A DNA stretch of 13,165 nucleotides from an uncultured bacterium (lineage in GTDB: Bacteria; Verrucomicrobiota; Kiritimatiellia; RFP12; UBA1067). Location: positions 1 through 13,165 of the forward strand of contig CACYEO010000086.1 in NCBI GenBank assembly GCA_902773475.1. Reading direction: 5' to 3'. The position numbers and the translations under genes are program-made. Below, one piece after another: positions 324 to 13,165 of this stretch (positions within the stretch are counted from its first letter, which is position 1; the number at the start of each line of letters is the position of its first letter). The notes under the pieces were generated by a model. It worked only from the letters and a program-made list of their open reading frames with translations, was not told the DNA's origin and did no database searches.

Positions 324-353
324 TTGACAACAGGAATAAAGAAATAGTATCAT
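324..353 (+). promoter_or_regulatory. Putative sigma70-type promoter with a -35 TTGACA at 324-329 and a -10 candidate TAGTAT/TATCAT at 345-353, giving a spacer of 15-18 bp. It is followed by an SD-like AAGGA at 372-376 and an ATG at 383.
   Basis: There is a perfect -35 hexamer and a near-consensus -10 in the AT-rich leader immediately upstream of the first gene, with appropriate spacing to the RBS and start codon. Confidence 0.4.
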
Positions 354-382: not shown

Positions 383-712
383 ATGCCTGCTGAAAACTAC
401 ATGAGTCTGGAAGAGGTTGCCGAATTCCTCGGCGTGACCTATCAGTTGATTTACAGGCTTGTTCGCTCCGGCGAACTGCCTGCGGCGCGTCTCGGGAAAC
501 TGTACCGCGTTTCGCGCGCCGATCTCGAACGCTATCTCGAATCCAGCAAGACCCCCGCCGCAGGCGGCGTGTGCAGCGTGTGCGGCACGGTCTACAAATC
601 GTCTGGGTCCCTCGGCAACGTCTGCAAGGAAAGCGGTTGCGGCGAGCCTATATGCTTCGACTGCTGGAACCGTCTCGGCATCCGCTATTGCAAAAAGCAC
701 GCCAAGAAGTGA
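383..712 (+). CDS. DNA-binding protein with an N-terminal excisionase/MerR-superfamily helix-turn-helix and a C-terminal Cys-rich putative zinc-ribbon or zinc-binding tail.
   Basis: The N-terminal sequence is MSLEEVAEFLGVTYQLIYRLVRSGELPAARLGKLYRVSRADLERYLE. This matches the excisionase-family HTH pattern (L-x-EEAAE-LGVS-x-TVYRL-x-GELPA-R-G-x-RI-x-DLE-YL). The C-terminus reads CSVCG..CKESGCGEPICFDCW..YCKKH, with at least 8 Cys. RBS AAGGA is 6 nt upstream of the ATG. Confidence 0.8.
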   Translation: MPAENYMSLEEVAEFLGVTYQLIYRLVRSGELPAARLGKLYRVSRADLERYLESSKTPAAGGVCSVCGTVYKSSGSLGNVCKESGCGEPICFDCWNRLGIRYCKKHAKK

Positions 713-765
713 GAAGTCCGTTTTAAACGCGATTCGTCGAACGAAAAAAAGAAAGGAACGATCAA

Positions 766-2589
766 ATGGGTCTCTTCAGCGACATCTGCCCGGACTGCGG
801 CGCCAGGGTTTCAAAGCGCGCCAGATTCTGTTCAAAGTGCGGGCGCGGCGCCCCCGACGGGTGGTTCAAGTGTCCGCAGTGCGGCAAATGGGCAGGCAAC
901 GATTCCAAGTTCTGCCCGCACTGCAACCATCCGCTTTTCCCCGAAGAACGCATAGATCTCGCGGGCGGGGTCTGGGCGCGCAAGCCCGGGGAATTCGCGC
1001 GGCGTTTCGAGCTTGACGACGTCCGATTCATCAAAGAGAACGGCCTGCTTGTGCAGGAGGGGACTGTCGCCGTGTTGCTCGACGGCGGGAAAGAGGTGAA
1101 AGAACTCGGCCCAGGCCGCCACCACCCGACTGGAACGCTCCGTTCTATCAACTGGTTCGGCAATCCTCCCCCGCGTTCGGCCGTCATGGTCGACGCCGGG
1201 GAATGCATATTCAGGGTTGATTTCACCGGGAACAATTCCGGCGTGGGCGAAGTCCGGTCTGCGCCGCTGCGCACCGCCGAGGAACTGGAAGTCGGGTGCG
1301 TCGCGGAGATCACGGTGCGTTTTGTCGCCGGCAGGGCGGATAAATTCGTGGCCAACGTCATGAAAGAGTCCAGATCCGTTTCTGCGAAGGACGTATGCGC
1401 GCTTCTGTACGAGAACGCTCTTTCGGCCGTGCGCGATCTGTGTACGCAATCGAAGATCGAGGATCTGGTGAAGGATCCCGAACGCCGCGAGCGGTTCGAG
1501 GACGGAATAACCCGCGCGCTGCGCGAGAGCATGAAAGACTGGGGCCTTGAAATCGTCCGTACCGGCGCGGTCGAATTCTACGGCGCCGCATACGAGGAAA
1601 TCCGCGCCAAATACGGGGAGCTCGAAAAGTCCCGCAGACTTGTCGAATTCGGGAAAGCCCAGATCGAGGTTCTCGCCGCCGCCGCCGACCAGGAAGCGGC
1701 GGAAGGCAAGCGGAACGCGCAGCGCGACCGGGAGATGGAGGAATATCTTGCGCAGCTTGCGCAGGAGAAGGAGCTTTCCGCGCTCGAACGCGACCGGGAG
1801 CTGCAAATCGCCAGGCGCGTTTCGCAGGGCGAGATTTCCGCCGCAGAGGCCAGACTCGCGGCCGCGCGCGAACTTGAAGAACACGCGAAGGCGATGACGG
1901 CGCTGGCGCACAAGCTGGAACTCGATCTGACGCTGCGCAACTACGACAGGGAGCAGCTTGTCGCCGACGCCGACAACAAGGCGAAGCTTTCGGCCATCGC
2001 CCGCGACGAACGCCTGAAAGACGAAAAACTCGACACCTCCGTCATGGGCGAGAAGCTGAGCCAGGCGAAACTGAACGACGAAATCGAAAGAATCCGCATT
2101 TCGCGCGAGCAGTGGGAGGCGATGATATGGCTTGATGTCCGTAAAAAGAAAGACGACATCAAGAACCAGGGCATGCGCGACAGGCTCGACATGTTCTCCG
2201 GCAGGGACGCGCGGGCCGTCGCAGCCGTCATGGCGCAGGAAGGCGATCCTTCCGTATCGAGTGCGATCCTGGGGCAGGAGGCGGAAGCGGCCCGCATGGC
2301 GCACGATGAAAACATGTCCAGGATCCAGGCCGGGATGACCGCCGAGCAGATTCTTGCGACTGGCGCCGCGAAGAGCCCCGACGCGGCCAAGGAGGCGTAT
2401 GCGCGCGCGGCCGAGGCCGGAGAAAAGGCGAACGGGAAGGTGCTGGAAGAGCGGCGCGGGATGGATGCCGAAATCCGGGCCGACCGCGACAAGACCGAAG
2501 GGCGTGTAATCGGCCTTGCCGAGAAGGCGGTCGAGAAAAACACCACTGTAGTCCAGGCGCCGGCGCCGGTCACCAACATGCAGCACTGA
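766..2589 (+). CDS. SPFH (band-7/flotillin-like) domain protein with an N-terminal double zinc ribbon and a long C-terminal Glu/Ala/Arg-rich coiled-coil.
   Basis: The N-terminus has two CxxC-x10-CxxC units (CPDCG..CSKCG and CPQCG..CPHCN). Next comes an SPFH-like core (LVQEGTVAVLLDGGKEVKELGPGRHHP ... GLEIVRTGAVEFY). The remaining ~330 aa are heptad-like E/A/R/K-rich sequence typical of flotillin C-termini. RBS AAAGGAA lies upstream. Confidence 0.85.
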   Translation: MGLFSDICPDCGARVSKRARFCSKCGRGAPDGWFKCPQCGKWAGNDSKFCPHCNHPLFPEERIDLAGGVWARKPGEFARRFELDDVRFIKENGLLVQEGTVAVLLDGGKEVKELGPGRHHPTGTLRSINWFGNPPPRSAVMVDAGECIFRVDFTGNNSGVGEVRSAPLRTAEELEVGCVAEITVRFVAGRADKFVANVMKESRSVSAKDVCALLYENALSAVRDLCTQSKIEDLVKDPERRERFEDGITRALRESMKDWGLEIVRTGAVEFYGAAYEEIRAKYGELEKSRRLVEFGKAQIEVLAAAADQEAAEGKRNAQRDREMEEYLAQLAQEKELSALERDRELQIARRVSQGEISAAEARLAAARELEEHAKAMTALAHKLELDLTLRNYDREQLVADADNKAKLSAIARDERLKDEKLDTSVMGEKLSQAKLNDEIERIRISREQWEAMIWLDVRKKKDDIKNQGMRDRLDMFSGRDARAVAAVMAQEGDPSVSSAILGQEAEAARMAHDENMSRIQAGMTAEQILATGAAKSPDAAKEAYARAAEAGEKANGKVLEERRGMDAEIRADRDKTEGRVIGLAEKAVEKNTTVVQAPAPVTNMQH

Positions 2590-2606
2590 AGCGGCGCTTG
2601 CAGGAA

Positions 2607-3923
2607 ATGACAGACGGAGACCATGCAATCTGCGGAAAGTGCGGCGCCCGCAACGCGGCGGACGCCAATTTCTGCATGTCGTGCGGCGCGAGGATGGTAA
2701 GCGCGCCGCCGTCTGGCGCACCGTCCGCCGCCCCTCCCCCGCCCGCAGCCGCCGCGTTCGCGCCGGCCGCGGTTGGCGAAGGCCGTCCCTGCCCGCCGCC
2801 AGGCGATTCCGCCGTGCCGTTCGTTTTCGCCGTATGCTCGCCGGATGCGTTCTGCAAAGGGCAGGCCGGCGTGTTCGTGCTGCGCTTCCGCGCGCTCGCA
2901 GACGTGTTCGAAAGCGTGTCATTCGCCCTTGTGCACGGGCGGGACGCGGTAAGGAACGCGGCGATAGACGGCCGTCCCGGAATCTGGGAGCACGAAGTGA
3001 TAATGGATGTGCAGCCTGAAACGCCCGGGCAGACCGGATTCGTTTTCGAAGTCCGCTGCCGGCGCGACGGATACGCTGATGACGAGTGGGAGGTCTATGC
3101 ATCCGCGCCGGTCATAGTGACCGTTGACGTCGCTCCGGTGGCGCAGAATCTGAACATAGACTTGGGCGGCTTGAACGTCATTGCCGGACAGTCCGACCGC
3201 GCGGCGGATTCAAAGGCGGTCAACAACCAGGTTTTCAACATATCTTCGTCTGCCGTGTTCGACCCCAATTCCCCGCGGTACAGGAAGGGTGTGCGGGCCG
3301 GGGACTGCAGGATGCATTTGAAATCCGCGCCGCGAAGGCTCACGCTTCATTCGTCTTCTTCTTCCAGGACGCTGCTTCTTCTTTCGAAGAATGAAATATC
3401 GTTCGGGCGCAAAAACGAAGCGACCGATGTGTCGATAAGGTGTTTCGGCGACGGTGGAGAATGCGATATCCCGTTATCCAAGATGGTTTCGCGCAGGCAT
3501 TTCGCCATATCCTACGACGGCATGGAATGCCGCATTTCCGATTTGGGATCGACGAAAGGCACGGTTTTCGACGGAAGAACGGTCGCGCCCGGAATGCCGA
3601 AAAGGATCAAGCCCGATGTGCGGCATTCGCTGACGGTCGCCATAATGCCGGACTTTTCCATGGATGCATATTGCGACCGTCTGGGCATAACGACGGGACT
3701 TTCGATAGACAGGACCGACGGTGCGCGGCAGCGCGTGTTCGCCGTGTGGCGCATGGGCGTGCCGGCCGGAAACGGCGGCGGGGAATTCGGCTGGAACGGA
3801 AAGTATTTCGTGTTCAGCCGCGCCGGCGGCGGCTGCAATCCGCTGCTGCCTGGAATGTCCGTTGAAATCGACGGAGAAACCTACGATGTGCAGGTGTACA
3901 ACCAGCCGTATGGAACGGAGTGA
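2607..3923 (+). CDS. Zinc-ribbon FHA-domain protein. It has an N-terminal CxxC..CxxC zinc ribbon, a Pro/Ala-rich linker, a beta-rich middle region of unknown function, an FHA domain (approx nt 3397-3650) and a C-terminal region of unknown function. The start may instead be the TTG at 2598.
   Basis: The ribbon is CGKCGARNAADANFCMSCG. The linker is PPSGAPSAAPPPPAAAA. The FHA signature is ISFGRKNEATDVSI...VSRRHFAISYDGMECRISDLGSTKGTVFDG (G-R, S-RRH-A-I, DLGSTNGT pattern). Confidence 0.85.
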   Translation: MTDGDHAICGKCGARNAADANFCMSCGARMVSAPPSGAPSAAPPPPAAAAFAPAAVGEGRPCPPPGDSAVPFVFAVCSPDAFCKGQAGVFVLRFRALADVFESVSFALVHGRDAVRNAAIDGRPGIWEHEVIMDVQPETPGQTGFVFEVRCRRDGYADDEWEVYASAPVIVTVDVAPVAQNLNIDLGGLNVIAGQSDRAADSKAVNNQVFNISSSAVFDPNSPRYRKGVRAGDCRMHLKSAPRRLTLHSSSSSRTLLLLSKNEISFGRKNEATDVSIRCFGDGGECDIPLSKMVSRRHFAISYDGMECRISDLGSTKGTVFDGRTVAPGMPKRIKPDVRHSLTVAIMPDFSMDAYCDRLGITTGLSIDRTDGARQRVFAVWRMGVPAGNGGGEFGWNGKYFVFSRAGGGCNPLLPGMSVEIDGETYDVQVYNQPYGTE

Positions 3924-3945
3924 AAAAACGAAAAGGAGAAACCGG

Positions 3946-4398
3946 ATGAAAATCACGAAAAAACTGGCGGCGGCATTCGTCCTTGCCGCGATCGCGGGAT
4001 GCACGACATGTCCCGTTTACAAAGTGAACGCAACGGCTGCGACGCCGGGAGCGGAAAACCTCGCGCGCGGGATAGCTTTCGACGTGAACGGCGGGCTGCT
4101 TGCAAAGGGGTATCCGATGCTCGCGCCGGGCGCCAGACTGAAATCCGGCCAGCGGCTCGTTGCGATCGACCTTGAGGTGGAACGGCGCGAAACGGCGTCG
4201 CTGGGCGACTGGCGCACTTACGAAGGCGTCGTGAGGGCGAGCGTGACCGACGGCGGCAAGCCCGCCGGAGCCGCCGAGTTCCGCGCCGGAGGGGAACGCG
4301 CCGACAACGAAACGGACGCCGAGCGCGGAGTGCGCGAGGCTCTTGCAAAGAGAGTCGGCGAATGGGTGGGCGGAGTGTCCGTCCCGGAAACCAAATGA
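3946..4398 (+). CDS. Small lipoprotein of about 150 aa with a signal peptide and a lipobox.
   Basis: The N-terminus is MKITKKLAAAFVLAAIAGC, with an n-region, an h-region and the lipobox IAG|C. A strong RBS AAAAGGAGAA lies 7 nt upstream. The six-frame ORF starting at 3721 is an upstream extension that overlaps the preceding gene. Confidence 0.75.
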   Translation: MKITKKLAAAFVLAAIAGCTTCPVYKVNATAATPGAENLARGIAFDVNGGLLAKGYPMLAPGARLKSGQRLVAIDLEVERRETASLGDWRTYEGVVRASVTDGGKPAGAAEFRAGGERADNETDAERGVREALAKRVGEWVGGVSVPETK

Positions 4399-4437
4399 CG
4401 ATTGCAGTCAAATGACATCCATAAAGGAGAAAACGCG

Positions 4438-5676
4438 ATGAAATTCCTTGCAGTATTCGCAATGGCCGCTGCCGCCGCAGGCGCTGCTTTCGCCGATTGC
4501 GGCAAATTCAACGATTTGGAAAAAGAGGCCGTGCGCAAGGCCGCCGCGGAAATCGCGGCGTCCCTGCGCAAGTCGGACAAGTGCTCCGGGCGCGCGGTGA
4601 CGCTGCTGCCCGTCAACGGCGACAAAGACGGATATGCGGAGCGTCTGCTCACCGGCGCGCTTGTCAATTCCGGCATGACGGTCGTTATGCCGAACGATGA
4701 AAACGACGTCCGTTTCAAGAGAATCCTCGCCAGCATCAAATGGGACGGCCGCCAGGTGAAACTTGGATCGGTGGATACGTCGACCGTGGACGAACTCGGA
4801 AGGCTCCGTTCCACGCAGGTGTTCATCGAGGCGGTTCTCGACATCAAGAGCGAAGAAAAATCCGCCAAGGCCGATTTGCACGTTCTTTCGTACGTGGTGG
4901 CCACAAAGTCGTATCTCGACGCCGCGAACGGGGTGGGCAATGCCGAGGCTCCGGCTGAGCCCCCTCCCCCGCCGCCGCGGAAAGCATGGACCGAAACCGC
5001 GGTGCAGAACGAGATCGTTCCGCTGCGCGTGAAGGTGGACACCCGCGCGAAAGACGCGGAATCGGAAGGCGTGGCCCGCCGGCTTGATACGGCGGTGCGG
5101 GGCGCGCTCGCGAAGCTCGGCTTCAGGCTCGCCGGAGAGGACTGCGACGCGAAAACCGTCGCGCTCGACGACGTCACCGTCACGCTCGACGTAGGGCGCT
5201 CCGTGTTCGACAAAGCCGGAGAATACGAAATCCATGAAGCCAAAGTTGACTTGTCCGCCGTAAAAAAAGCCGGCGCCGGAACCCTGCTCGTCGGAACGGC
5301 GGTGTTCGACGAACGCGGGGACCGCAAGCTCGGCAGCTTCGCGGCAGACAGGAGTCTCGCGGAGAAACTCGAAGGGCCGGCGGTGGAATGGCTCAAGAAG
5401 AACATCGTGCAGAACACCGTGAAGACGGCCGCCGTGCAGTTTGAAGTCCGCCTTGCAAAGCCGATTGCCGTCGCGGGCGACATGTCCGTCGTGGAAAAAT
5501 TCATGCAGCCTTTCGCGCTGCTCGGCGGCGTGCGGCTGTACAGGCTCGACGCGCGCGACGACGAAGCCGGCATGCTTCGGTTCTTCGTCGTGTACGAAAC
5601 GGAAAAATTCCCGGGTGGTCTGGTGCCGGCGTATTTCGCGTCCGCTCCCGAGCTTGGAGAACTGCTTGACAAGTGA
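4438..5676 (+). CDS. Secreted or periplasmic protein with a signal peptide and two repeated domains of unknown function. It is a paralogue of the next gene.
   Basis: The N-terminus is MKFLAVFAMAAAAAGAAFA|DCG, preceded by RBS AAAGGAG. The motif VTLLPVNGDKDGY...W (a CsgG/LpoB/TolB-N-like first-strand pattern) is present. There is an internal PAEPPPPPPRK linker. It aligns clearly with 5718..6812 (VTLLPVNGDKDGYAERL...FKRILASIKWD..LGRLRSTQVFIEAVL versus VAVLPVAGDRDRYIAGRL...FGEILKEIAWD..FGRLQAAQVLLTATV). Confidence 0.8.
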   Translation: MKFLAVFAMAAAAAGAAFADCGKFNDLEKEAVRKAAAEIAASLRKSDKCSGRAVTLLPVNGDKDGYAERLLTGALVNSGMTVVMPNDENDVRFKRILASIKWDGRQVKLGSVDTSTVDELGRLRSTQVFIEAVLDIKSEEKSAKADLHVLSYVVATKSYLDAANGVGNAEAPAEPPPPPPRKAWTETAVQNEIVPLRVKVDTRAKDAESEGVARRLDTAVRGALAKLGFRLAGEDCDAKTVALDDVTVTLDVGRSVFDKAGEYEIHEAKVDLSAVKKAGAGTLLVGTAVFDERGDRKLGSFAADRSLAEKLEGPAVEWLKKNIVQNTVKTAAVQFEVRLAKPIAVAGDMSVVEKFMQPFALLGGVRLYRLDARDDEAGMLRFFVVYETEKFPGGLVPAYFASAPELGELLDK

Positions 5677-5717
5677 AACCGCGGCGTTCGCGGATACAAA
5701 TGAAAGGATTGCAAAAA

Positions 5718-6812
5718 ATGAAAAAGACGATTTTGGCTTTGGTTCTGCCGTTGCTCTCCGCCGCAGCTTTGGCTTCCGGCGGGAGCGAAGATCTCATGCG
5801 CCAGACGGTTGATGCGGCGTTCAAGGACGTGCAGGACGCGATTGCGGCGTCTCCGGTTCCCGCCGGCGCGACCGTGGCCGTCCTGCCCGTGGCGGGCGAC
5901 CGCGACCGCTACATCGCGGGACGGCTCAAAAACGCCGTGACCGCGGGCGGGCGCAAGTGCGTAGAAGACAAGGACGATCCGGTTTTCGGTGAAATCCTCA
6001 AGGAAATAGCCTGGGACGAACGCAAAGAAGACATACTCGACCCGGCCACGGTGCAGAAATTCGGCAGGCTCCAGGCCGCGCAGGTTCTGCTGACCGCTAC
6101 CGTGCGCACCTTGGAATCGAACGAGCGATATTCGTTTTTCGAGTTCGAGCTGCACGCCACGGAAATCGCCACCAAACGGCATCTTTGGGGCGACGTGTTC
6201 GAAAAGCATCTCTACATGCCCGGGCTCGAGGACGCGGCCGGCGAGTCGGGAATCCCCGCGCCTCTTCGCGATGCGCTGGCGTCGGAAATGCGCGCGAAAA
6301 TCGAAGCGTCATTGAAAAAATCCGGGAAACTTTCGAACATCGGCAAAGTCGCATACCTCCCCCTTGCGGGCGACTCGAAGGGATACGTATTTTCGATAGT
6401 GCGCGATGCGGTTTCGTCCACGTCCATGTCGCTCGTCAATCTCGACGTCGCGACCCGCGGAGAAGCCCGCATGCGCCTGCGCGACAGGCGCGTCGCGGCG
6501 GATGCGCTTCTGAGCGGATCGGTGCGCGAGCTGTCCGGGAGCGTGGTCGAGGATTCGCCCGCCGGAAAGCGCTTCCGCTACCGCGCCGAGGTGCAGCTGT
6601 GCATCGAAGGGACCGACGGCGCCGCACTCTGGAGCGATACGATATCCATCGACGTCGAACGGGAAGAGGAACTCGGCATCTGGGGCAGACTGTGCAAACT
6701 GTTTCCGTCCCTTGCAAGCAAGCCGTGGCTTGCGGTCGTCGTTCCGGTCTGTCTGGTCCTGGGCGTCTTTGTTTTCATATCCGTCTTGCGCGGCATGACG
6801 CGCGTGAGGTGA
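5718..6812 (+). CDS. Secreted paralogue of the previous gene. It has a signal peptide, two VxxLPhxGDxxxY-type domains and a C-terminal transmembrane anchor.
   Basis: The N-terminus is MKKTILALVLPLLSAAALA with RBS AAAGGA. It has the motifs VAVLPVAGDRDRY and VAYLPLAGDSKGY. The C-terminus KPWLAVVVPVCLVLGVFVFISVL is hydrophobic. An alternative in-frame ATG at 5700 lacks an SD. Confidence 0.8.
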   Translation: MKKTILALVLPLLSAAALASGGSEDLMRQTVDAAFKDVQDAIAASPVPAGATVAVLPVAGDRDRYIAGRLKNAVTAGGRKCVEDKDDPVFGEILKEIAWDERKEDILDPATVQKFGRLQAAQVLLTATVRTLESNERYSFFEFELHATEIATKRHLWGDVFEKHLYMPGLEDAAGESGIPAPLRDALASEMRAKIEASLKKSGKLSNIGKVAYLPLAGDSKGYVFSIVRDAVSSTSMSLVNLDVATRGEARMRLRDRRVAADALLSGSVRELSGSVVEDSPAGKRFRYRAEVQLCIEGTDGAALWSDTISIDVEREEELGIWGRLCKLFPSLASKPWLAVVVPVCLVLGVFVFISVLRGMTRVR

Positions 6813-6816
6813 GACG

Positions 6817-7701
6817 GTGGATGTGAAAACCGAAACATGCTGCGTCTGCGGGCGGGAACTTCCGAACCGCTACGCCGTGGCCGGCCGCTGCGATGCGGAC
6901 GGCTGCGGCGCGCCGTTCTGTTCGCTCCACTGGCACGACGGCAACGGGAAGTGCCCTGCGCACGGACGGGAAGAGAAAAAAGAATCCGGCAATCGAGGAG
7001 GAGAGGGAATGTCCGAACATGAAACGATAGAAGGCGAAACCGCCGCATCCGCAGTCCCCGCCGCGCCGCCGCCGCAGGCGGAGCCGCGTACGACCGGGAA
7101 AACAGTCGCCGCGGCCGCGCTGAAAGGCTCCGTCTCCATAGGCAGAAGCGCAGTCGCGTATTTCAAGAAACTGTGCGGAATACGCGATCCCAAGGCCGCG
7201 CTCGCGGAGGCGGAAGCGTCCCTCGCCGCGGTAAGAGAGCGCAGAGAGCCGCTTTCGGCGCGGTACGAAGAGCTTTATTCGAAGATTGCCGCCAAAAAGA
7301 AACTCCGCGACGGCGCTTCTCCCGCAAGGCGCAAAATGCTGGACATGGAGCTTCGCACGCTTCTTGCGGAATACAAGAGCATAGAGCGCGAGGTGTCCGC
7401 GCTGTACAGGAAAGAAGAAATGGTCGTCACGGTCAGAGGCCGCATGAACGAACTGGTCGTACAGGGCCTGCCGATGCCGCGCGTCGAAGACGTCGACCGC
7501 CTTGCAGACGACATTTCCGACGCCCTCGACACGGATGAAGACCTTGCCGATGCCGTGGGCGAGCTGGACAAGATCGGCGCGGGACGCGAGCGCCATGCGC
7601 CGAATCTGGACGAGGAACTCGCGGAATTCGAGGAATCGGCGCCGGAGGGCGAAACCGCGCGGCTCAGGCCGGAAAACCCCGCCGCCACTGTCGGGGAATG
7701 A
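6817..7701 (+). CDS. Zinc-ribbon protein with a Snf7/ESCRT-III-like (or PspA-superfamily) helical domain. The helical half is basic at its N-terminal end and strongly acidic at its C-terminal tail.
   Basis: A GTG start overlaps the upstream stop (GTGAGGTGAgacgGTG), with a GAGGTG SD. The N-terminus is CCVCG..CDADGCGAPFCSLHWHDGNGKCPAHG. The central segment has KKLRDG..RRKMLDMELRTLLAEYKSIEREVSALYRKEEMVVTVRGRMNELVVQ followed by VEDVDRLADDISDALDTDEDLADAVGELD. This resembles yeast Snf7 ...NMDIDKVDELMQDIADQQELAEEIS. The acidic tail is LDEELAEFEESAPE. The ESCRT-III assignment is inferred from sequence similarity and charge asymmetry, without profile search. Confidence 0.7.
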   Translation: MDVKTETCCVCGRELPNRYAVAGRCDADGCGAPFCSLHWHDGNGKCPAHGREEKKESGNRGGEGMSEHETIEGETAASAVPAAPPPQAEPRTTGKTVAAAALKGSVSIGRSAVAYFKKLCGIRDPKAALAEAEASLAAVRERREPLSARYEELYSKIAAKKKLRDGASPARRKMLDMELRTLLAEYKSIEREVSALYRKEEMVVTVRGRMNELVVQGLPMPRVEDVDRLADDISDALDTDEDLADAVGELDKIGAGRERHAPNLDEELAEFEESAPEGETARLRPENPAATVGE

Positions 7702-7719: not shown

Positions 7720-9111
7720 ATGGCGTTGTTCATGAGCGAAGCCGAAAGAAGGCGCGATGCGCGGCGGCGCCGCCGCCGCGCTTTGCGCGAAGTCCGCAAC
7801 GCCGTGGATGCGGCGAGGTTGAAGCGCGATGAAATATGCAAGCGCCGCGCGGATGAATGGAAGGCCGCGCGGGCTGCGCTTTCCGCCGGAGACGAGGCCG
7901 ACGCGCGGCGGCGGCTCGAGTCGGTCAGGACTGACGATGCCGCGCTGAAGCGCCTCGACGCCCGGCTGGCCCGGTTCGAGGCGCTTGAACGCGAAATGGA
8001 ATGCGCCGACGCCGATGCGGCGTTCGACGAGGCGTCGGCGTCTCTTTCTCGCTTCGTAAAGGCTCCGGAGGAGGCCGGGGAGGCCGAATCCGCGCCGCCG
8101 CCCTCCGTGGACGAACTGCTTGAACTTCTCGCCAGAGAACCTGAAACCGAAAAAACCGAAGGAACGGCCGGCCGTCCGAAACCGCCGCCGGCGGCATCGT
8201 CTCTGAAGGTGGACGGCGATGCAGACGCGTCGTCGAAATGGGTCGCGACAAAGCCGTCCGCCGTGCGCCTTGAAGACGTTGTCGGTCTTGACGATGCCAA
8301 GACGGCCGTGATGGACGCGCTCGTCAATCCCGTGAACCATCCCGACATATACAAAACGCTCAAGGTCGCGCCCGGAACAGGGCTTCTCCTCTACGGCCCG
8401 CCGGGAACAGGCAAGACGCTTTTCGCGAAAGCCGTCGCCAACGAAATGGGGCTGCCGTTCCTCGACGTCCGCTGCGACAGACTGAAAAGCAAATACGTAG
8501 GCGAGACCGAAAAGAACGTGGCCGAAATGTTCCGCGCCGCCCGAGCGCTCGGCAGATGCGTGCTGTTTCTTGACGAATGCAACGCGATTCTTTCCCGCCG
8601 CGGAGACCAGAAGGTCTGCATGGTGGAGCAGTTTCTTGTGGAGCTTGACGGGTTCTCGACGTCCGACGCGCAATTGTTCGTCTTGATGGCCACGAACCTT
8701 CCCTGGACGCTCGATCCCGCAATCACGCGCAGCGGCCGCCTGAGCGAAGCCGTTTACGTAGGACTGCCTGACGAGGCCGCGCGGCGCAGGCTGATTGCAA
8801 ACGCGTTCAAGGACGCACCTCTGGCGGCGGATGTGGATCTCGACTCTCTCGCCGCCCGCACGGAGGGGTTCAGCGGCGCCGATCTGGCGGCCAAGGGCGG
8901 ACTTTGCCACAAGGCCAAGACGTACGCGGCCCGCCGCTGGGTGGAGCGCCGTACCGGCGCGCCGGCGAAAGACGGCCCGGCGTGGGACGCGGTCGAGCGG
9001 GTGACGGCTGCGGATGTCGAAAAGGCGCTTGCGGGAACCGTTCCGGTCGCCAGTTCGGCGGCGGATATCGTGCAGCGCAACAGGGAATTTTCTCTCAAGA
9101 AAGAGGTGTAG
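7720..9111 (+). CDS. AAA+ ATPase of the Vps4/katanin ('meiotic') clade with an N-terminal Arg-rich helical domain that may be MIT-like.
   Basis: RBS GGAGGTGA lies upstream. The Walker A region is [48 protein letters not shown] (compare Vps4 [26 protein letters not shown]...[22 protein letters not shown]). Walker B is [11 protein letters not shown]. The SRR/arginine-finger region is ILSRRGD...FLVELDGF. The clade-typical sequence is [20 protein letters not shown] (Vps4 GATNIPWVLDSAIRRRF). Confidence 0.9.
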   Translation: [463 protein letters not shown]

Positions 9112-9114
9112 CGC

Positions 9115-9690
9115 ATGGCCTGGAAACTTGACGACAGCAGCGTCGGCCGCGAATTGAAGACCGGCGCCGGACCGAGCAAGAGGGAAAGATCTCTTCCTGC
9201 GGACGTCGCTTACGACGTGCAGCGCGTGCTGTACAGAAAATGGATCATCGCCGCGATAGAGTATCTGCTGAAGTTCGCCTTCTTCGCCGGACTGCTGTGG
9301 CTGGCGTGGCGCGGCGTGAAGTCGCTGCTTCCGGAAGACACCCCGGCTCCGCAGGCCCCGGCCGCCGTCCAGGCGGTTCCCGATGCACCGGCCGCGCAGG
9401 CGGCCGCCATAGGCGCGCCCGCAGTGCTCGGCCTCGCCCTGGCGGTGCTGCTCCTCCCCGTGATGACGATATCGTTCATAAGGACGATGGTTGCAAAGCG
9501 GTCGAACAGAGTGAACGCGTTCACTTTGGGCGTGTATACCGCGATAGACATGATCCTGGCGTATTTCATGGTAGGCGCGTCGCTTGAAACCGCCGTCTCC
9601 GCCGTGCTTTTCACCGGGGCGTCGTTGCTTTCGCTGATATACAACATGACTGTGATGAACTATGCCGTGAAACTCGAAGACGGAAAGTGA
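9115..9690 (+). CDS. Small integral membrane protein with 3-4 predicted TM helices and unknown function.
   Basis: RBS AGAGGTG lies upstream. The hydrophobic segments are IIAAIEYLLKFAFFAGLLWLAW, VLGLALAVLLLPVMTISFI, FTLGVYTAIDMILAYFMVGA and AVLFTGASLLSLIYNMTVM. Confidence 0.7.
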   Translation: MAWKLDDSSVGRELKTGAGPSKRERSLPADVAYDVQRVLYRKWIIAAIEYLLKFAFFAGLLWLAWRGVKSLLPEDTPAPQAPAAVQAVPDAPAAQAAAIGAPAVLGLALAVLLLPVMTISFIRTMVAKRSNRVNAFTLGVYTAIDMILAYFMVGASLETAVSAVLFTGASLLSLIYNMTVMNYAVKLEDGK

Positions 9691-9701
9691 AAGGCTGGCA
9701 A

Positions 9702-10667
9702 ATGGGCAGGCTTGACGAGATAGAAGCGCGCATCGACGCGCGCATGGCGGATATCGACAACCGCATTGACGCGATAGTCGGCGGGAACGGAACCGTGCCT
9801 CCAAAGGCAGGCTCCGCGGATACGCACAGGGGCTTCGCTCCGTTTGCGGAATCGCAACAGCCGGGAACCGCGCCTGGGATCCGCGGAATCGGGACGGCGG
9901 GCCGCGGGTCCGCGAGGCGCGTCGGACTGTGCGTGGGTTTGAACACCGTAGATTCTTCGGCATATCCAGGATACACCGTTCCGCCGCTTTCGGGCTGCAT
10001 CGCAGATGTGGAACGTCTCATGTGCGTGTTGAACAGGCTTGAATTCGAGGCCGCGAAACTTGTGGACGGACAGGCGACATGCGCCAATCTCTACAATGCC
10101 GTCAAAAAACTGACTGCCGTGTTGGAACCCGGAGATCTGTTCGTGCTGCACGTGTCCGGACACGGCGGACGGGTGAACGGCACGGGCGAGAACTGGTGTC
10201 TGTACGACGGGCTGGCGTGGGATTCCGACATCGTCTGGCTGTTTTCGCGCTTCCGTCCCGGCGTCCGCGTTCTTGTCATAAACGACCAATGCCATTCCGG
10301 CGGCATCTTCCAGTCCCGGAAGGCCGATGCGCCGTCTCCGTTCGGCGAACTGTGCAGGGCCGACGGACGCCCGGCGGACTGGGACGCCGGCGCCGCCGTG
10401 GCCGGGAAGGATTTCCCGATGCTCATCCAATTCGCCGGATGCCGCGCCGAGCAGACCAGCATCGACGGACTCGCCGGGGGAACCTGGACCCAGGCGCTTG
10501 TCAATGCGCTTGACGCCGCCGTTTCGCAGAATGCATATCTTACTTACAGGCAGTGGTTCGACTGCGCGTTTGCAAGCCCTGCGCTCCAGCGCGGGCGGCA
10601 GGATCCGCAGTGGGTGGAGAGTGCGGGCGTGACGGATGAATTCCGCGGTTGCGCGGCGCTTTTCTGA
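9702..10667 (+). CDS. Caspase-like cysteine peptidase (C14, metacaspase/orthocaspase-like) with a short N-terminal coiled-coil. An alternative GTG start at 9687 overlaps the upstream stop.
   Basis: The sequence runs VGLCVGLNTVDSSAYPGYTVPPLSGCIADVERL...LVDGQATCANLYNAVKKL...GDLFVLHVSGHGG (catalytic His in SGHG, nt ~10161)...GVRVLVINDQCHSGG (catalytic Cys in D-x-CHSG, nt 10290-10292). This is the metacaspase-type D[AS]CHSG signature. Confidence 0.85.
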   Translation: MGRLDEIEARIDARMADIDNRIDAIVGGNGTVPPKAGSADTHRGFAPFAESQQPGTAPGIRGIGTAGRGSARRVGLCVGLNTVDSSAYPGYTVPPLSGCIADVERLMCVLNRLEFEAAKLVDGQATCANLYNAVKKLTAVLEPGDLFVLHVSGHGGRVNGTGENWCLYDGLAWDSDIVWLFSRFRPGVRVLVINDQCHSGGIFQSRKADAPSPFGELCRADGRPADWDAGAAVAGKDFPMLIQFAGCRAEQTSIDGLAGGTWTQALVNALDAAVSQNAYLTYRQWFDCAFASPALQRGRQDPQWVESAGVTDEFRGCAALF

Positions 10668-10683
10668 CAGCGGGGGCATTGCG

Positions 10684-11997
10684 ATGAAACATGTTTTCGA
10701 CAGCAGGGATTTTTTGGCGTCCGCCAATACTGAGCGGCGCGCCGACGGAATGCGGCCGGACGTCAGAGACGCTCCGGCACAGGACGGAAAGGTTCCACAG
10801 TGGATGACCGCATCGCTTGCAAGAACCGTGATCGTCACGCTTGCGATAGGAGCGATGCTGTATTTCGTCTTTCAAAACGAGTTCCTTTCCCGTCTGGGCA
10901 ATTGCGTGCTTGCGGCGTTGTTCGTGCCTCTTTTGAGCGAACTCGTCGCCGGGCTTCTGCGCAGGAAAAACGTGCAGCGCGTTTCGGGCGTGCGCGCGAT
11001 TGCGGCATGCGACAGGAAATACGTGAAATTCGCCTGCTTTGCGCATCTGCTTCTCGCAGCCGTCCTTGCGGCATTCATCGCGATAGGATTCTGGAACGGA
11101 AGGAGCAAGTCCGGGGCGGACGTGGCGAAAGTCTCTGACGGACAGCCTGCCGGGGCCCCGGCGGAAACAGCGCCTGAACCTGAAGCGCCCTGTTCCGGCA
11201 GACTTGCAAAAGCCGGCGCCGCGAAAGTCTCGCCCGGGCAGATAAAGGCGTATTTGACGCCTTCAGACGCCGAGGTGGAACAATTGTACCAAATGGTCGT
11301 CGCGGCTCCGTTCGTCGCCGAGAACCTGCAGTATCGCGACCGCCTTGCGAACATTCCGTTCGTGTATATCGCCACGAACGATGTTGTCAATGCCTCTTCG
11401 CTTCGAAATGTCGTGGAGAAGAACGGAGAAAAGTCGCTCGTGTTCCATACGGTGCTCTTCGGCGGCGCGGCGCGGTACGCCCGGCTCGTCGGCCTCGCGG
11501 CCGCTCTGCAGGACTCCGGACGCGGGGACATGCTCAAAAAGTTCGTGGCCGCGATGCCTAAGCGCTTCTGCGGCGTCTGCGACGAAGAGTCCTGCGAAAA
11601 ATTCATAACGGACAACGGATTGGACGAAGCACTCGCAGACGAGAAAATCCGGCTGCGCGCCGTGTCCTATTCCTCCGGCACGATAATAAGCATTCTCGCG
11701 CACGAGTGCGGACATCACGCCCTCGGGCATCTGCTGGGCTTTCCCCGGAAAGAGAATCTGTCCATCGACCGGAACCAGGAGCGGGAGGCTGACTCTTTTG
11801 CGTCGTCCGTCATCAGTGCAAGTCCGTTCGGAGAGTTCATATTCGCGGGAACCCTGTTTTGGCACTATGCAGTCGCCATGCAGTCGGAGGACGGCCGGTC
11901 TGCGGCTGGCGACCATCCGCATTCCAGAGAGCGTTTTGAGAATTTCGTGAAATCCAACCGGGAAAAAGCGGCGGCGATGGGAATAACGCTGGAATGA
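10684..11997 (+). CDS. Membrane-anchored zinc metalloprotease, M48/M56-like (HExxH...ExxAD). A longer in-frame start at 10636 would overlap the caspase gene.
   Basis: N-terminal TM helices are ARTVIVTLAIGAMLYFVF, CVLAALFVPLLSELVAGLL and FAHLLLAAVLAAFIAIGFW. The zinc-binding site is ISILAHECGHHALGHLLG (nt ~11701-11730), and the downstream QEREADSFA resembles the third zinc-ligand Glu motif of M48 peptidases. Confidence 0.8.
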   Translation: MKHVFDSRDFLASANTERRADGMRPDVRDAPAQDGKVPQWMTASLARTVIVTLAIGAMLYFVFQNEFLSRLGNCVLAALFVPLLSELVAGLLRRKNVQRVSGVRAIAACDRKYVKFACFAHLLLAAVLAAFIAIGFWNGRSKSGADVAKVSDGQPAGAPAETAPEPEAPCSGRLAKAGAAKVSPGQIKAYLTPSDAEVEQLYQMVVAAPFVAENLQYRDRLANIPFVYIATNDVVNASSLRNVVEKNGEKSLVFHTVLFGGAARYARLVGLAAALQDSGRGDMLKKFVAAMPKRFCGVCDEESCEKFITDNGLDEALADEKIRLRAVSYSSGTIISILAHECGHHALGHLLGFPRKENLSIDRNQEREADSFASSVISASPFGEFIFAGTLFWHYAVAMQSEDGRSAAGDHPHSRERFENFVKSNREKAAAMGITLE

Positions 11998-13165
11998 CTG
12001 ACGAAACATTGAGCGATGCTGTGACGCTTGACGGCGGGAATGACCGGATTCTCGCCGGGCGCTATCGCATATTGAAACAGCTCGGCGCAGGCGGCATGGG
12101 GTCGGTCTGGCTCGCAGAGGACATGCAGTTAGACAACAAGCTTTTCGCAATAAAGATGCTGCCGCAGGTTGTCGCTTCCGACAAGGAAGCCGCCAACTCG
12201 GTCAAGCGCGAAGCGAAAGTCGCGATGAAGCTTTCGCATTCCAATATCGTCGTTTTGCGCGATTATGTCGAAAACGGCGGCAATCCTTTTTTGCTGATGG
12301 ATTATGTCGAGGGCATGCCCCTGTCATCCTGTCTTGCGGATTGGGGACGGCTTTCTCCCGAAGAAACAATCGCTCTTCGCGCTCCTGTCGCCGCCGCCAT
12401 AGACTATGCGCACACGCAAGGCGTGATACACCGGGACATAAAACCCGGCAATATAATCGTCCGCGCAAAAGACGTCACGCCGTTCGTGCTGGATTTCGGC
12501 ATCGCGCGCGATGTGCATGAAAGCATGTCGCGAATGACCGGCAAACAGCCGTCGGGCACATTGATGTACATGTCGCCGGAGCAGATCAACGGCGAACTCC
12601 CCGCAAAGGCGCACGACATATATTCGTTCGCCGCCACGGTGTACCAGTGCCTTGCCGGAAAACCGCCTTTCAGCAGGGGCGACATAACCCACCAGATTCT
12701 CGACAACCCTCCCCCGCCGTTGCCTCCGGGATGCTCTGGCAGGCTTGGCGCGGCGGTAATGGCCGGTCTGGATAAAAATCCGGCTAAACGGCCTTTGTCG
12801 TGTACTAATCTGCTGCGGGGAATAATTCCGGACGGCAAAAAACCGCGGCGCTTGCTAAACAACATGCTGCCGCGCCCTTCCAAAAAAAGGATATTGCCGT
12901 TTTTTATCACGGGCGTTCTTGTTTCATTGATTGCCGGCGGTGTATATTACGGTTTGTCTAAACAATGGAAAACCAGTGATGGAAATGCCGTTCCAAAGCA
13001 CGGCGACACGAAGACAATCACTCTTCCAGACAGAGCGACGACGGAAATGGTATACGTCGAGCCAAAGCACGGCGACACGAAGACAATCACTCTCCCCGGC
13101 GGAGCGACGATGGAACTGATATATGTCGCGCCCGGCTCTTTCACGATGGGAAGCCCTTCTTTCGA
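11994..13165 (+). CDS. Hanks-type Ser/Thr protein kinase with a TM segment and an extracytoplasmic FGE-sulfatase/SUMF1-like domain. It is 3'-truncated by the window edge.
   Basis: I translated this myself, because it has no stop in the window and is therefore missing from the ORF track. The ATG overlaps the upstream TGA (ATGA). Kinase motifs are LGAGGMGSVW (G-loop), FAIKML (VAIK), VIHRDIKPGN (catalytic loop, nt ~12428), LDFGIA (DFG) and YMSPE (APE). The TM segment is ILPFFITGVLVSLIAGGVYYGL. The start of the FGE-type domain is MELIYVAPGSFTMGSP. Confidence 0.9.
   Translation, partial: MTDETLSDAVTLDGGNDRILAGRYRILKQLGAGGMGSVWLAEDMQLDNKLFAIKMLPQVVASDKEAANSVKREAKVAMKLSHSNIVVLRDYVENGGNPFLLMDYVEGMPLSSCLADWGRLSPEETIALRAPVAAAIDYAHTQGVIHRDIKPGNIIVRAKDVTPFVLDFGIARDVHESMSRMTGKQPSGTLMYMSPEQINGELPAKAHDIYSFAATVYQCLAGKPPFSRGDITHQILDNPPPPLPPGCSGRLGAAVMAGLDKNPAKRPLSCTNLLRGIIPDGKKPRRLLNNMLPRPSKKRILPFFITGVLVSLIAGGVYYGLSKQWKTSDGNAVPKHGDTKTITLPDRATTEMVYVEPKHGDTKTITLPGGATMELIYVAPGSFTMGSPSF
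12993..13130 (+). repeat. In-frame tandem duplication of a 69-bp (23-codon) unit inside the kinase gene.
   Basis: CCAAAGCACGGCGACACGAAGACAATCACTCT occurs at 12993 and again, identically, at 13062. The remainder of the two copies is diverged (PKHGDTKTITLPDRATTEMVYVE versus PKHGDTKTITLPGGATMELIYVA). Confidence 0.85.

Follow-up and report, generated by a model that had tools for sequence, protein, structure and literature searches.

The question raised by this locus is whether an operon in which several functionally different proteins carry small cysteine clusters at their ends has used one zinc-binding module repeatedly, or has brought unrelated modules together. The window, that is, the whole 13,165-nt stretch of DNA that was analysed, comes from an uncultured member of the Kiritimatiellia (RFP12; UBA1067; assembly GCA_902773475.1, contig CACYEO010000086.1). 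The earlier note on this DNA had located the clusters on a regulator, an SPFH protein, an FHA protein and a Snf7-like protein, and had read them as the same zinc ribbon on all four. The clusters are indeed present (nt 572-700, 787-924, 2631-2684 and 6838-6963), but they fall into two classes, termed here module A and module B, and the features to which we refer are as follows.

324..353, + strand: sigma-70-like promoter, TTGACA-N18-TATCAT, with an A-rich block 5′ of it, ahead of p1
383..712, + strand: p1, 109-aa regulator, HTH_17 plus C-terminal module B
572-700, + strand: module B copy 1 (p1 aa 64-106), C-x2-C-x13-C-x4-C-x4-C-x2-C-x8-C-x2-H
766..2589, + strand: p2, 607-aa SPFH/Band_7 protein with N-terminal double zinc ribbon and long charged helical tail
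787-840 and 871-924, + strand: module A copies 1 and 2 (p2 aa 8-25 and 36-53), CxxC-x10-CxxC twice
2598..3923, + strand: p3, 441 aa, N-terminal ribbon and C-terminal FHA domain
2631-2684, + strand: module A copy 3 (p3 aa 12-29), CxxC-x10-CxxC
3946..6812, + strand: p4, p5 and p6, three exported or lipoprotein-like proteins with signal-peptide-like N-termini
6817..7701, + strand: p7, 294 aa, GTG start; module B, disordered linker, predicted helical-hairpin core
6838-6963, + strand: module B copy 2 (p7 aa 8-49), C-x2-C-x13-C-x4-C-x4-C-x2-H-x7-C-x2-H
7720..9111, + strand: p8, Snf7-family N-terminal half fused to a classical-clade AAA ATPase
9115..11997, + strand: variable 3′ part, with p9 (multi-TM), p10 (caspase, Peptidase_C14) and p11 (multi-TM, HExxH peptidase-like)

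The operon is kept in metagenome-assembled genomes (MAGs) of Kiritimatiellia and Lentisphaerae. Its first gene, p1, stands behind a promoter with an 11/12 match (0.4 such matches expected by chance). Of 13 other loci inspected by eye, 12 show the A-rich block, TTGACA and −10 element ahead of the p1 homolog, L034 being the one without them. The HTH_17 domain of p1 (aa 6-54, nt 398-544; Pfam E 2.6e-17) is called an excisionase-type domain by NCBIfam, the SPFH domain of p2 occupies aa 96-266 (nt 1051-1563; Pfam Band_7, E 2.8e-11), and the FHA domain of p3 lies at aa 269-338 (nt 3402-3611; Pfam E 4.3e-8). The positions of the p4-p6 genes are kept in related loci. Within this trio p6 has a C-terminal TM anchor and a weak LpoB-like match that stays below the Pfam and NCBIfam cut-offs, and p5 and p6 look similar by eye. 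The 3′ part varies by locus and may hold caspases, M4, papain-lectin-caspase and U49-like peptidases, or kinases. By hydropathy, none of the four zinc-module proteins (p1, p2, p3 and p7) has a TM segment, in line with a cytoplasmic location. SPFH proteins usually have an N-terminal membrane anchor. In contrast, p2 has no predicted TM segment (maximum 19-residue hydropathy 0.89), and the double ribbon sits at the anchor's N-terminal position.

Module A, to judge from its sequence, is an ordinary one-zinc ribbon from the most generic bacterial ribbon family, and the CxxC-x10-CxxC spacing is consistent with one zinc held by two CxxC knuckles. Both p2 (39.0 bits, E 6e-10, over two stretches) and p3 (29.6 bits, E 5.7e-7) pass the curated Pfam cut-off of 25 bits for Zn_Ribbon_1 (PF13240), and p2 also matches DZR (PF12773; 31.6 bits, E 1.8e-7); these families have the same spacing. 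The three copies are related to each other by hhalign, with probabilities of 96.4% (first and second p2 copies), 98.1% (first p2 copy and p3) and 96.7% (second p2 copy and p3). The p2 ribbons are nearly invariant between loci (CP[DE]CG.KVSK[KR]ARFCSKCG and KCPQCGKWVGN[DE]SKFCPHCNH), while the p3 ribbon is variable except for the Cys residues and one Phe. In related loci, module A is found again on SPFH, FHA and Ser/Thr-kinase proteins.

Module B has about 43 residues with eight ligands, and stands at the C-terminus of p1 and the N-terminus of p7. The two copies are homologous members of one domain family, as profile comparison indicates (hhalign 97.5% probability, E 5.7e-12, 46 columns), and they have G8, W35 and G38 in common besides the ligands. 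Of 368 p1 homologs found, ligands were counted in the 120 listed, which are 69-82% identical to p1 except for one identical copy (P0070): all eight ligands are present in 119 and the exact p1 spacing in 118. Among p7 homologs, 53 of 69 keep all eight; of the other 16, one has a substituted ligand, and 15 are gene calls that begin at a Met inside the gene or miss the N-terminus for some other reason. Across 26 p7 homologs, C8, C11, C25, C30, C35, C46 and H49 are invariant and position 38 is H or C. When 49 sequences of both families are taken together, C, C, G, C, C, C, C and H are invariant and W and G nearly so. The H/C exchange at ligand 6 and an x4-to-x2 change between ligands 3 and 4 are the kind of behaviour that ligand pairs would display. 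Invariant ligands, this pair-like variation and an AF2 model of the isolated module with pLDDT 93.4 all argue that module B is a real conserved domain. The clusters are thus not chance features: those of p2 and p3 pass a Pfam cut-off, the ligands of p1 and p7 are kept in homologs, and a profile of module B finds 158 matches.

Could A and B nevertheless be one module that all four proteins share as their common handle? All four clusters start with a CxxCG-type knuckle and lie at protein termini, and that one knuckle (6-12 columns) is what hhalign aligns between the classes. However, the probability of an A-B relationship is 6.1% for p1 and 6.7% for p7, against 96-98% inside each class. The Zn_Ribbon and DZR families that match p2 and p3 are absent from p1 and p7, for which no zinc-ribbon Pfam family appears even at E 0.1. 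The ligand spacings differ (2,10,2 in A; 2,13,4,4,2,7/8,2 in B), eight ligands and a helix bring B closer to two-zinc fingers than to ribbons, and no SPFH-type DZR protein is found among the 150 best matches of the B profile in 1.84 billion sequences. Spacing, Pfam membership, profile comparison and predicted fold therefore separate two unrelated families, so that the single-module reading is largely refuted and now seems most improbable. The alignment that the earlier note proposed as a check on common descent thus comes out divided: relatedness holds inside A and inside B, but neither between A and B nor as a sister grouping of the p1 and p7 modules. The note's own alternative, independent ribbons of unrelated spacing or fold, is borne out in part, with two spacings and two folds. 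Overall, its interpretation is partly supported, and a shared target or docking role may reasonably be proposed.

In the AF2 model, module B consists of two hairpin knuckles followed by a helix that starts at the third ligand pair. The best structural matches point tentatively to two-zinc cross-brace fingers (ZZ, PHD, FYVE and RING, and also C1), and the eight Cys/His ligands in four pairs are what such fingers require. Module B would thus probably bind two zinc ions in a treble-clef, with an interleaved cross-brace (pairs 1+3 and 2+4) that is read only from the order of secondary-structure elements. Family libraries offer little for comparison. Neither the p1 nor the p7 module matches a Pfam or NCBIfam model at cut-off, and no match to a PDB sequence looked real. 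Pfam zf-CRD (PF17979) gives weak matches over module B in all 26 p7 homologs scanned; those seen individually score 14-20 bits, short of the 26.3-bit cut-off, and, beginning at profile position 19-21, span only about 40-55 positions out of 158. Module B, a conserved eight-ligand zinc domain without a model in current family libraries, appears to be undescribed.

Module B might, like FYVE or C1, be a finger that targets membranes or lipids. It would then bring p7 to the membrane, a task that in ESCRT-III usually falls to an N-terminal membrane helix, and would keep the regulator at the membrane until it is released; we regard this as very unlikely.

An alternative that needs neither contact nor membrane is a thiol/zinc switch for redox state or metal: module B would come unfolded under oxidants or when zinc is depleted, and the regulator and the ESCRT-III-like activity would shift in parallel. 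Zinc-thiolate switches exist elsewhere, the proteins are cytoplasmic and fit seven or eight Cys/His ligands into 43 residues, the MAGs with module B proteins come largely from rumen samples, and a common input would account for one domain on regulator and effectors alike, with no need for contact between them. On the other hand, nothing in module B is specific for redox chemistry. The 13-residue loop, which differs strongly between p1 and p7, is conserved inside each family (GT.Y[KR][ST]..SL in p1, LPNR[YW]AVAGR in p7), and such loops resemble binding surfaces. In addition, tandem arrays of two to five B copies fit scaffolding better than switching, leaving the switch an improbable explanation.

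How widely module B travels bears directly on what it might do. Among 1.84 billion proteins, its profile finds 158 cluster representatives at E <= 1e-3. The module is present in one to five copies, and Pfam scans of 20 representatives identify the carriers as HTH_17 proteins, caspases, CHAT proteins, subtilases and papain-like peptidases, together with one kinase and one FHA protein. Module B is thus a mobile domain. The arrangement of HTH_17 followed by one or two B copies recurs in P0213, P0229, P0261, P0263 and P0283, which are otherwise different proteins. Mean identities between modules are 0.31 for p7 and p1, 0.34 for p7 and other proteins, and 0.36 for p1 and others. Since the p1-p7 identity is no higher than that to modules of unrelated proteins, the two are not sister groups, nor is the operon's pair monophyletic, by this identity-based comparison.

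The genomic pairing of the two carriers points the other way, at least in part. The p1 homolog is the operon's first gene in L001, L003, L005, L007, L009 and L011 and in 13 genome loci. Of 24 species-level genome loci, 13 have both B proteins in a single gene cluster, as do most metagenome loci (L001, L003, L005, L009 and L011), and this pairing is kept across Kiritimatiellia and Lentisphaerae/Victivallales. L007 has p1-B without p7, and L017 and L018 have p7-B without p1 in cis; contact between p1 and p7 is therefore not the sole role of module B. It has to be considered that B acts by itself as a structural or dimerising unit, one that pairs HTH_17 monomers, for example, or pairs p7, and that its presence on both proteins reflects domain shuffling within the lineage with no functional link. 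The recurrence of HTH_17-B in so many different proteins, the separate occurrence of p1 and p7, and two subfamilies that are only about 31% identical and not sister groups are what such a history would leave behind. This reading, a serious minority possibility, is harder to reconcile with the pairing in one operon across both lineages and with the company that B-tagged effectors keep: their repeated position beside genes for DZR-tagged SPFH, FHA and kinase proteins hints at a role at the level of the system. Two other operon types have a single B-tagged effector each. In L013 a caspase-B gene adjoins an SPFH-like protein with a C-terminal DZR, a DZR-tagged kinase and a DZR-FHA protein, and in L042 a subtilase-B gene adjoins an SPFH-like protein with a C-terminal DZR and a DZR-tagged kinase. 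The operon types sampled are few, and five other module B loci, on short contigs, hold a single B protein each.

The nature of p7 matters to any model of the operon. The Snf7-like label is plausible, and both architecture and context allow p7 to be called ESCRT-III-like: after module B, a disordered linker (aa 57-105) leads into core helices (aa 96-271, nt 7102-7629), and in related loci a Snf7 gene and an AAA ATPase gene lie in the gene cluster of the p7 homolog, usually just downstream. Profile searches are less generous. Snf7 and PspA profiles give p7 no significant match (Pfam Snf7 appears in 3 of 26 homologs, best E 0.022), hhalign finds no relationship to the neighbouring Snf7 family, and PDB profile matches to CHMP4B and Snf7 have E 0.13-0.4. 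Weak EAD9 matches of p7 homologs fall in the helical core, outside module B. By contrast, the neighbouring family is clearly Snf7: the L005 gene scores 34.8 bits against PF03357 (cut-off 27.3). In the window, p8 joins a Snf7 part (aa 3-114, nt 7726-8061) to an AAA domain and lid (aa 222-408, nt 8383-8943; Pfam AAA, E 1.7e-36), a fusion that blastp reveals by comparison with L001, L003, L005 and L009, where Snf7 and AAA are separate genes. The N-domain of the ATPase is here replaced by half of a Snf7.

Our preferred explanation, which we consider about evenly balanced between right and wrong, is that the operon contains two unrelated zinc modules with different jobs, B being a docking adaptor on the outputs of an A-tagged platform. 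The A-tagged SPFH scaffold, FHA reader and kinase would form a membrane-proximal sensing platform. Module B would dock proteins in the manner of ZZ, PHD, FYVE or RING fingers, rather than act as a catalytic or DNA-binding unit, and the B-tagged proteins would be outputs recruited to or released from the platform: transcription via p1, membrane remodelling via p7 with Snf7/AAA, and proteolysis in sister systems. Through their B copies, p1 and p7 might bind each other or one common partner, in which case operon transcription could track how the ESCRT-III-like polymer is assembled, by analogy with PspA holding PspF. The presence of module B on a kinase and an FHA protein blurs the split between scaffold and outputs. 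A more far-reaching version is unlikely, though worth stating: B would be a docking code onto the ribbon-tagged SPFH/FHA/kinase platform, within a larger bacterial Snf7/AAA membrane-damage or abortive-infection machine of the PVC group, and p1 would read polymer assembly via B. If true, this would be a zinc-finger version of PspA-PspF feedback, with the HTH_17 regulator and the ESCRT-III-like protein as outputs, alongside caspases, subtilases and CHAT proteases in sister systems.

Whatever the mechanism, the locus serves as a reminder that terminal Cys clusters of one operon need not be one module, and so corrects a tempting over-reading. It also has informative relatives among known systems. 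The Bacillus subtilis ydjFGHL-type operon combines PspA with a zinc-ribbon band-7 protein and a two-ribbon protein (PMC11237479), which recalls p2, p3 and p7/p8 as a likeness of theme. In contrast to that operon, the present type has a Snf7-family protein in place of PspA on the ESCRT-III side, adds an AAA ATPase, FHA proteins, kinases and caspases, and has a second, non-ribbon zinc domain in module B. The coupling of an ESCRT-III-superfamily protein to the transcription factor of its own operon has a precedent in PspA-PspF (PMC7619361). The logic would be the same as that proposed for p7 and p1, as an analogy only: PspA binds directly to PspF, an AAA+ enhancer-binding protein, whereas p1 is a small regulator of the HTH_17 type that a common zinc domain is proposed to link to p7.

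In bacterial conflict systems, the effector-associated adaptor domains (Kaur et al., PMC7159879, PMC8195603) are like module B in being small domains found on a regulator or core and on varied effectors, sometimes in the same locus, and the effectors with module B are likewise caspase, CHAT, subtilase and papain-like proteins. Module B differs in being a zinc finger, and most other B loci sampled hold one B protein; a term search of PMC7159879 did not find it. Since it travels with regulators and death-type proteases, module B offers a concrete handle on how multi-gene membrane systems are wired.

The last comparison is wider than the zinc modules themselves. Like archaeal and eukaryotic ESCRT-III with Vps4/CdvC, related loci pair a Snf7 gene with a single-domain classical AAA ATPase, and the window fuses the two in p8. 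The ATPase is not specifically Vps4- or CdvC-like: it scores 162 bits against the CdvC model (cut-off 650), no better than against CDC48, PAN or FtsH, with all of these scores about equal and far below every cut-off, and Pfam finds no MIT domain in the L005 ATPase. A 2025 review held that a Vps4-like partner is apparently absent from bacteria (PMC7619361). Against that background, the locus, which in Kiritimatiellia and Lentisphaerae places a true Snf7-family protein with an AAA ATPase of the classical clade, is a tractable starting point for work on bacterial remodelling of the ATP-driven ESCRT-III type.

The genes of the window form a single long operon on the + strand, whose members p1 to p11 and Cys clusters are as follows.

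Operon genes and their Cys clusters (window coordinates; residues counted within each protein)
p1: 383-712, + strand, HTH_17 regulator
p1 Cys cluster: nt 572-700, aa 64-106, + strand, C-x2-C-x13-C-x4-C-x4-C-x2-C-x8-C-x2-H
p2: 766-2589, + strand, SPFH/Band_7 protein
p2 Cys clusters: nt 787-924, aa 8-25 and 36-53, + strand, CxxC-x10-CxxC twice
p3: 2598-3923, + strand, FHA protein
p3 Cys cluster: nt 2631-2684, aa 12-29, + strand, CxxC-x10-CxxC
p4-p6: about 3946-6812, + strand, exported or lipoprotein-like proteins
p7: 6817-7701, + strand, helical protein
p7 Cys cluster: nt 6838-6963, aa 8-49, + strand, C-x2-C-x13-C-x4-C-x4-C-x2-H-x7-C-x2-H
p8: 7720-9111, + strand, AAA ATPase
p9: 9115-9690, + strand, multi-TM protein
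p10: 9687-10667, + strand, caspase
p11: 10636-11997, + strand, TM HExxH peptidase-like protein

The four clusters lie on p1, p2, p3 and p7, where the earlier note had placed them, except that the N-terminal ribbon it had seen in p2 is in fact two ribbons; none of the four proteins has a TM-like segment. That note had gone on to propose one zinc-ribbon module fused to all four proteins as a common binding or recruitment handle, an identity that is contradicted by ligand spacing, Pfam membership and profile comparison. Zn_Ribbon_1/DZR (double zinc ribbon) matches lie above curated Pfam cut-offs in p2 and p3, and no Pfam ribbon family was found in p1 or p7. When profiles built from homologs and related loci were compared pairwise by hhalign, with the A-versus-B comparison as an internal control for the inflation of E-values that Cys-Cys scores cause in short Cys-rich profiles, p2 ribbon 1 matched p2 ribbon 2 at 96.4% (E 1e-9) and the p3 ribbon at 98.1% (E 7.3e-14), p2 ribbon 2 matched the p3 ribbon at 96.7% (E 4.1e-10), each over 21 columns, and the p1 C-terminus matched the p7 N-terminus at 97.5% (E 5.7e-12, 46 columns), whereas the ribbons matched p1 at 6.1% (E 0.0061, 6 columns) and p7 at 6.7% (E 0.0054, 12 columns). 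The zinc modules of the operon are therefore two families: module A, the one-zinc ribbon of p2 and p3, and module B, the eight-ligand module of p1 and p7. The clusters align within A and within B but not across, and the functional interpretation first offered would survive only within each class. Module A is an ordinary Zn_Ribbon_1/DZR member, and the double ribbon of p2 is strongly basic and almost invariant across related loci.

Across 26 full-length p7 homologs, C8, C11, C25, C30, C35, C46 and H49 are invariant and position 38 is H or C, an alternation that fits a ligand role. The pattern is kept in 119 of the 120 listed p1 homologs; of 16 p7 homologs that lack it, 15 are gene calls that start at an internal Met or miss the N-terminus, and in the last a ligand is substituted. 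When the two families are aligned together, C, C, G, C, C, C, C and H are invariant and a W and a G almost invariant, and the spacing between ligands 3 and 4 is x2 in place of x4 in some copies, from which it follows that the ligands act as four pairs. AlphaFold2 folds the module alone (pLDDT 93.4) into two beta-hairpins with one knuckle each, a helix from ligand 5 and, at the C-terminus, a short turn that carries ligands 7 and 8, and the full-length p7 model contains the same fold. From these models we infer an interleaved two-zinc site, with pairs 1+3 and 2+4, that would fit the structural class of the cross-brace zinc fingers. Module B might instead serve as a FYVE/C1-like membrane binder, which we regard as very unlikely, or as a redox or metal switch, which seems quite unlikely; a protein-docking finger is the reading we prefer. 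No Pfam or NCBIfam model matches B at its cut-off (zf-CRD matches are all sub-threshold), and PDB sequences yielded antibody fragments near or below E 0.001, taken as spurious, and otherwise partial C2H2 matches. EAD9 was dropped as an identity for B, the weak Pfam EAD9 matches falling in the helical core outside it. Literature searches found nothing on PF17979/zf-CRD and no published description or model of module B. The novelty of the zinc modules is modest: B is a new family within a structural class already known, and A a generic ribbon.

An exhaustive search of 1.84 billion cluster representatives with the B profile returned 158 matches at E <= 1e-3, of which 47 reached E <= 1e-10; a word-indexed search for homologs, started from the alignment of the module by itself (17 candidates, 1 match), is uninformative for so short a query. 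Proteins carry one to five copies, at either end or in the middle, and Pfam scans of 20 carriers besides the p1 and p7 types gave these architectures.

Architectures of B-carrying proteins
HTH_17-B(-B)-unknown
subtilase-HTH_17-B
subtilase-B, once with a DAC domain
CHAT-B(-B)
caspase-B
papain-like-B
kinase-B
FHA-B

With such variety in number, position and architecture, B is a conserved mobile domain, and its carriers are mainly regulators and proteases of the bacterial conflict or cell-death kind.

Whether the two B copies of the operon belong together is a separate question. The p7 copy is present in 24 of 24 genome loci and the p1 copy accompanies it in 13; an operon variant (L007) has the p1 copy and lacks p7 and the ATPase, and two rumen loci (L017, L018) have the p7 copy with no p1 gene upstream. 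At about 31% identity, the two are no closer to each other than either is to the B of unrelated proteins, and their 13-residue loops are conserved inside each family and different between them, which points to old, separate branches rather than intra-operon duplication. Where a cluster type is long enough for its neighbours to be assessed (window type, L007, L017/L018, L013, L042), what recurs beside B is the set of ribbon-tagged SPFH, FHA and kinase proteins rather than another B. Two operon types other than that of the window each have a single B-tagged effector, a caspase in L013 and a subtilase in L042, beside a ribbon-tagged kinase and an SPFH-like protein whose C-terminus bears a double ribbon; L013 also carries a double-ribbon FHA protein. 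No such neighbour was found on the short B contigs L015, L041 and L043. A general pairing of B proteins within each locus is unsupported in five other loci, all short contigs. It is on these data that one must weigh the reading of B as a plain dimerising or structural unit with no link between p1 and p7, which we consider unlikely; docking through B remains our preference.

Comparison of metagenome loci and 24 species-level genomes establishes a common operon syntax: HTH_17-B, double-ribbon SPFH, ribbon-(FHA) protein, two or three exported proteins and B-p7, followed by a variable tail with a Snf7-family gene, an AAA ATPase, Ser/Thr kinases (ribbon-bearing in some cases), caspases and further peptidases. 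The genomes, many from rumen, are labelled Kiritimatiellae/Kiritimatiellia, Lentisphaerae, Victivallales or unclassified Verrucomicrobia/-ota. One 1.9-kb contig with a p7 homolog and an AAA gene (L027, CAYSRP010000186.1) sits in a bin labelled Methanomicrobiales archaeon and is probably mis-binned, because all other matches come from the PVC group. In L017 (3701-5911) and L018 (4938-6929), both rumen MAGs, an insertion of about 60 residues (MGLFSDKCEA...GFCGNKVPKRAHVCSKCG) splits the first SPFH ribbon. Within the window, p5 and p6 (4402-6812) look by eye like paralogs with a common LPV.GD.D.Y-type motif following the signal peptide; LpoB-like matches in p6 stay below threshold, and p6 has a strong C-terminal TM anchor (aa 345-378) that p5 lacks. 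Beyond the operon, at the 3' end (12993-13130), a 69-nt unit occurs twice in tandem at 87% identity, and an Rfam scan of the window including these repeats found no RNA family.

Upstream of p1 (173-382) lie tandem repeats, two of 15 nt at 173-202, three of 16 nt at 201-248 and then GGGGAAT repeats, and 3' of these an A-rich block and a promoter, TTGACA-N18-TATCAT (324-353). The block and promoter are conserved upstream of p1 homologs from Kiritimatiellae to Lentisphaerae (12 of 13 other loci inspected by eye) and are a possible operator for p1, itself highly conserved. Two starts are plausible for the p7 gene: GTG at 6817 with GAGG 7 nt upstream (6806-6817), giving the full protein with module B, and ATG at 7009, an internal codon that GGAGGAGAGGG precedes (6995-7011). 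A p7 isoform without B is possible, because gene callers set the start downstream of B in 15 close homologs.

The surrounding system is more unusual than its zinc modules. The gene that comes next after p7 in L005 matches Snf7 above the Pfam cut-off (34.8 bits), and the ATPase falls within the classical AAA clade; "Vps4-like" was rejected as a statement of membership, the affinity not being Vps4-specific. In p8 (7720-9111), a natural Snf7-AAA fusion, residues 3-114 match residues 1 to ~115 of the Snf7-family protein that related loci (L001, L003, L005, L009) encode as a gene of its own (E 7.5e-9). Residues ~152-461 match the AAA ATPase of those loci beginning near its residue 86, so that the ATPase's own N-terminal domain is missing; the 465-aa ATPase of L011 suggests that the closest relatives have the fusion too. 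A Pfam-threshold Snf7 with a single-domain classical AAA, accompanied by SPFH, FHA, kinases and caspases, occurs in L001, L003, L005, L009 and L020-L040 (PVC group). At the p10 N-terminus (9702-9785), a helix M(G/S)RLD(E/D)IExRIDxRMAEIDxRI is common to effectors of L003, L005, L007, L009 and L011, carried by caspases, M4 peptidases, a papain-lectin-caspase protein and a Pfam-unmatched 302-aa protein of L005. Its DEIEARI core resembles the MIM1 motif, and MIM1 binds MIT domains; this helix may be what the variable effectors actually share as a recruitment handle. PADLOC matched no known defence system, giving only generic IetA/TRIP13-type AAA, mad1 HTH, caspase and peptidase similarities, and literature searches found no account of a Snf7/AAA/SPFH/FHA/caspase operon and none of an ESCRT system in Kiritimatiellae.

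The double ribbon of p2 occupies the N-terminal position at which a membrane anchor is usual in SPFH proteins. Module A would mark scaffold and signalling proteins, B would be a protein-docking finger of output proteins, and the p1 regulator and the ESCRT-III-like p7 would bind one another or a common partner, so coupled that transcription of the operon would follow assembly of the ESCRT-III-like polymer in PspA/PspF style. The package as a whole, from the two families to p1-p7 coupling, is evenly poised between right and wrong in our judgement, nearly all of the doubt attaching to the inferred steps.

This coupling, proposed for p7 and p1 by analogy, follows the logic known from PspA and PspF (PMC7619361). 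According to that 2025 review, bacteria appear to lack a Vps4-like ATPase, and an mSystems paper (PMC11237479) describes Vps4-like ATPases transferred to bacteria, with Snf7 displaced. In its behaviour module B resembles the adaptor domains known from conflict systems (PMC7159879). The combination of ribbon-tagged, band-7 and ESCRT-III-superfamily proteins has itself already been described, in the ydj operon of B. subtilis (PMC11237479).
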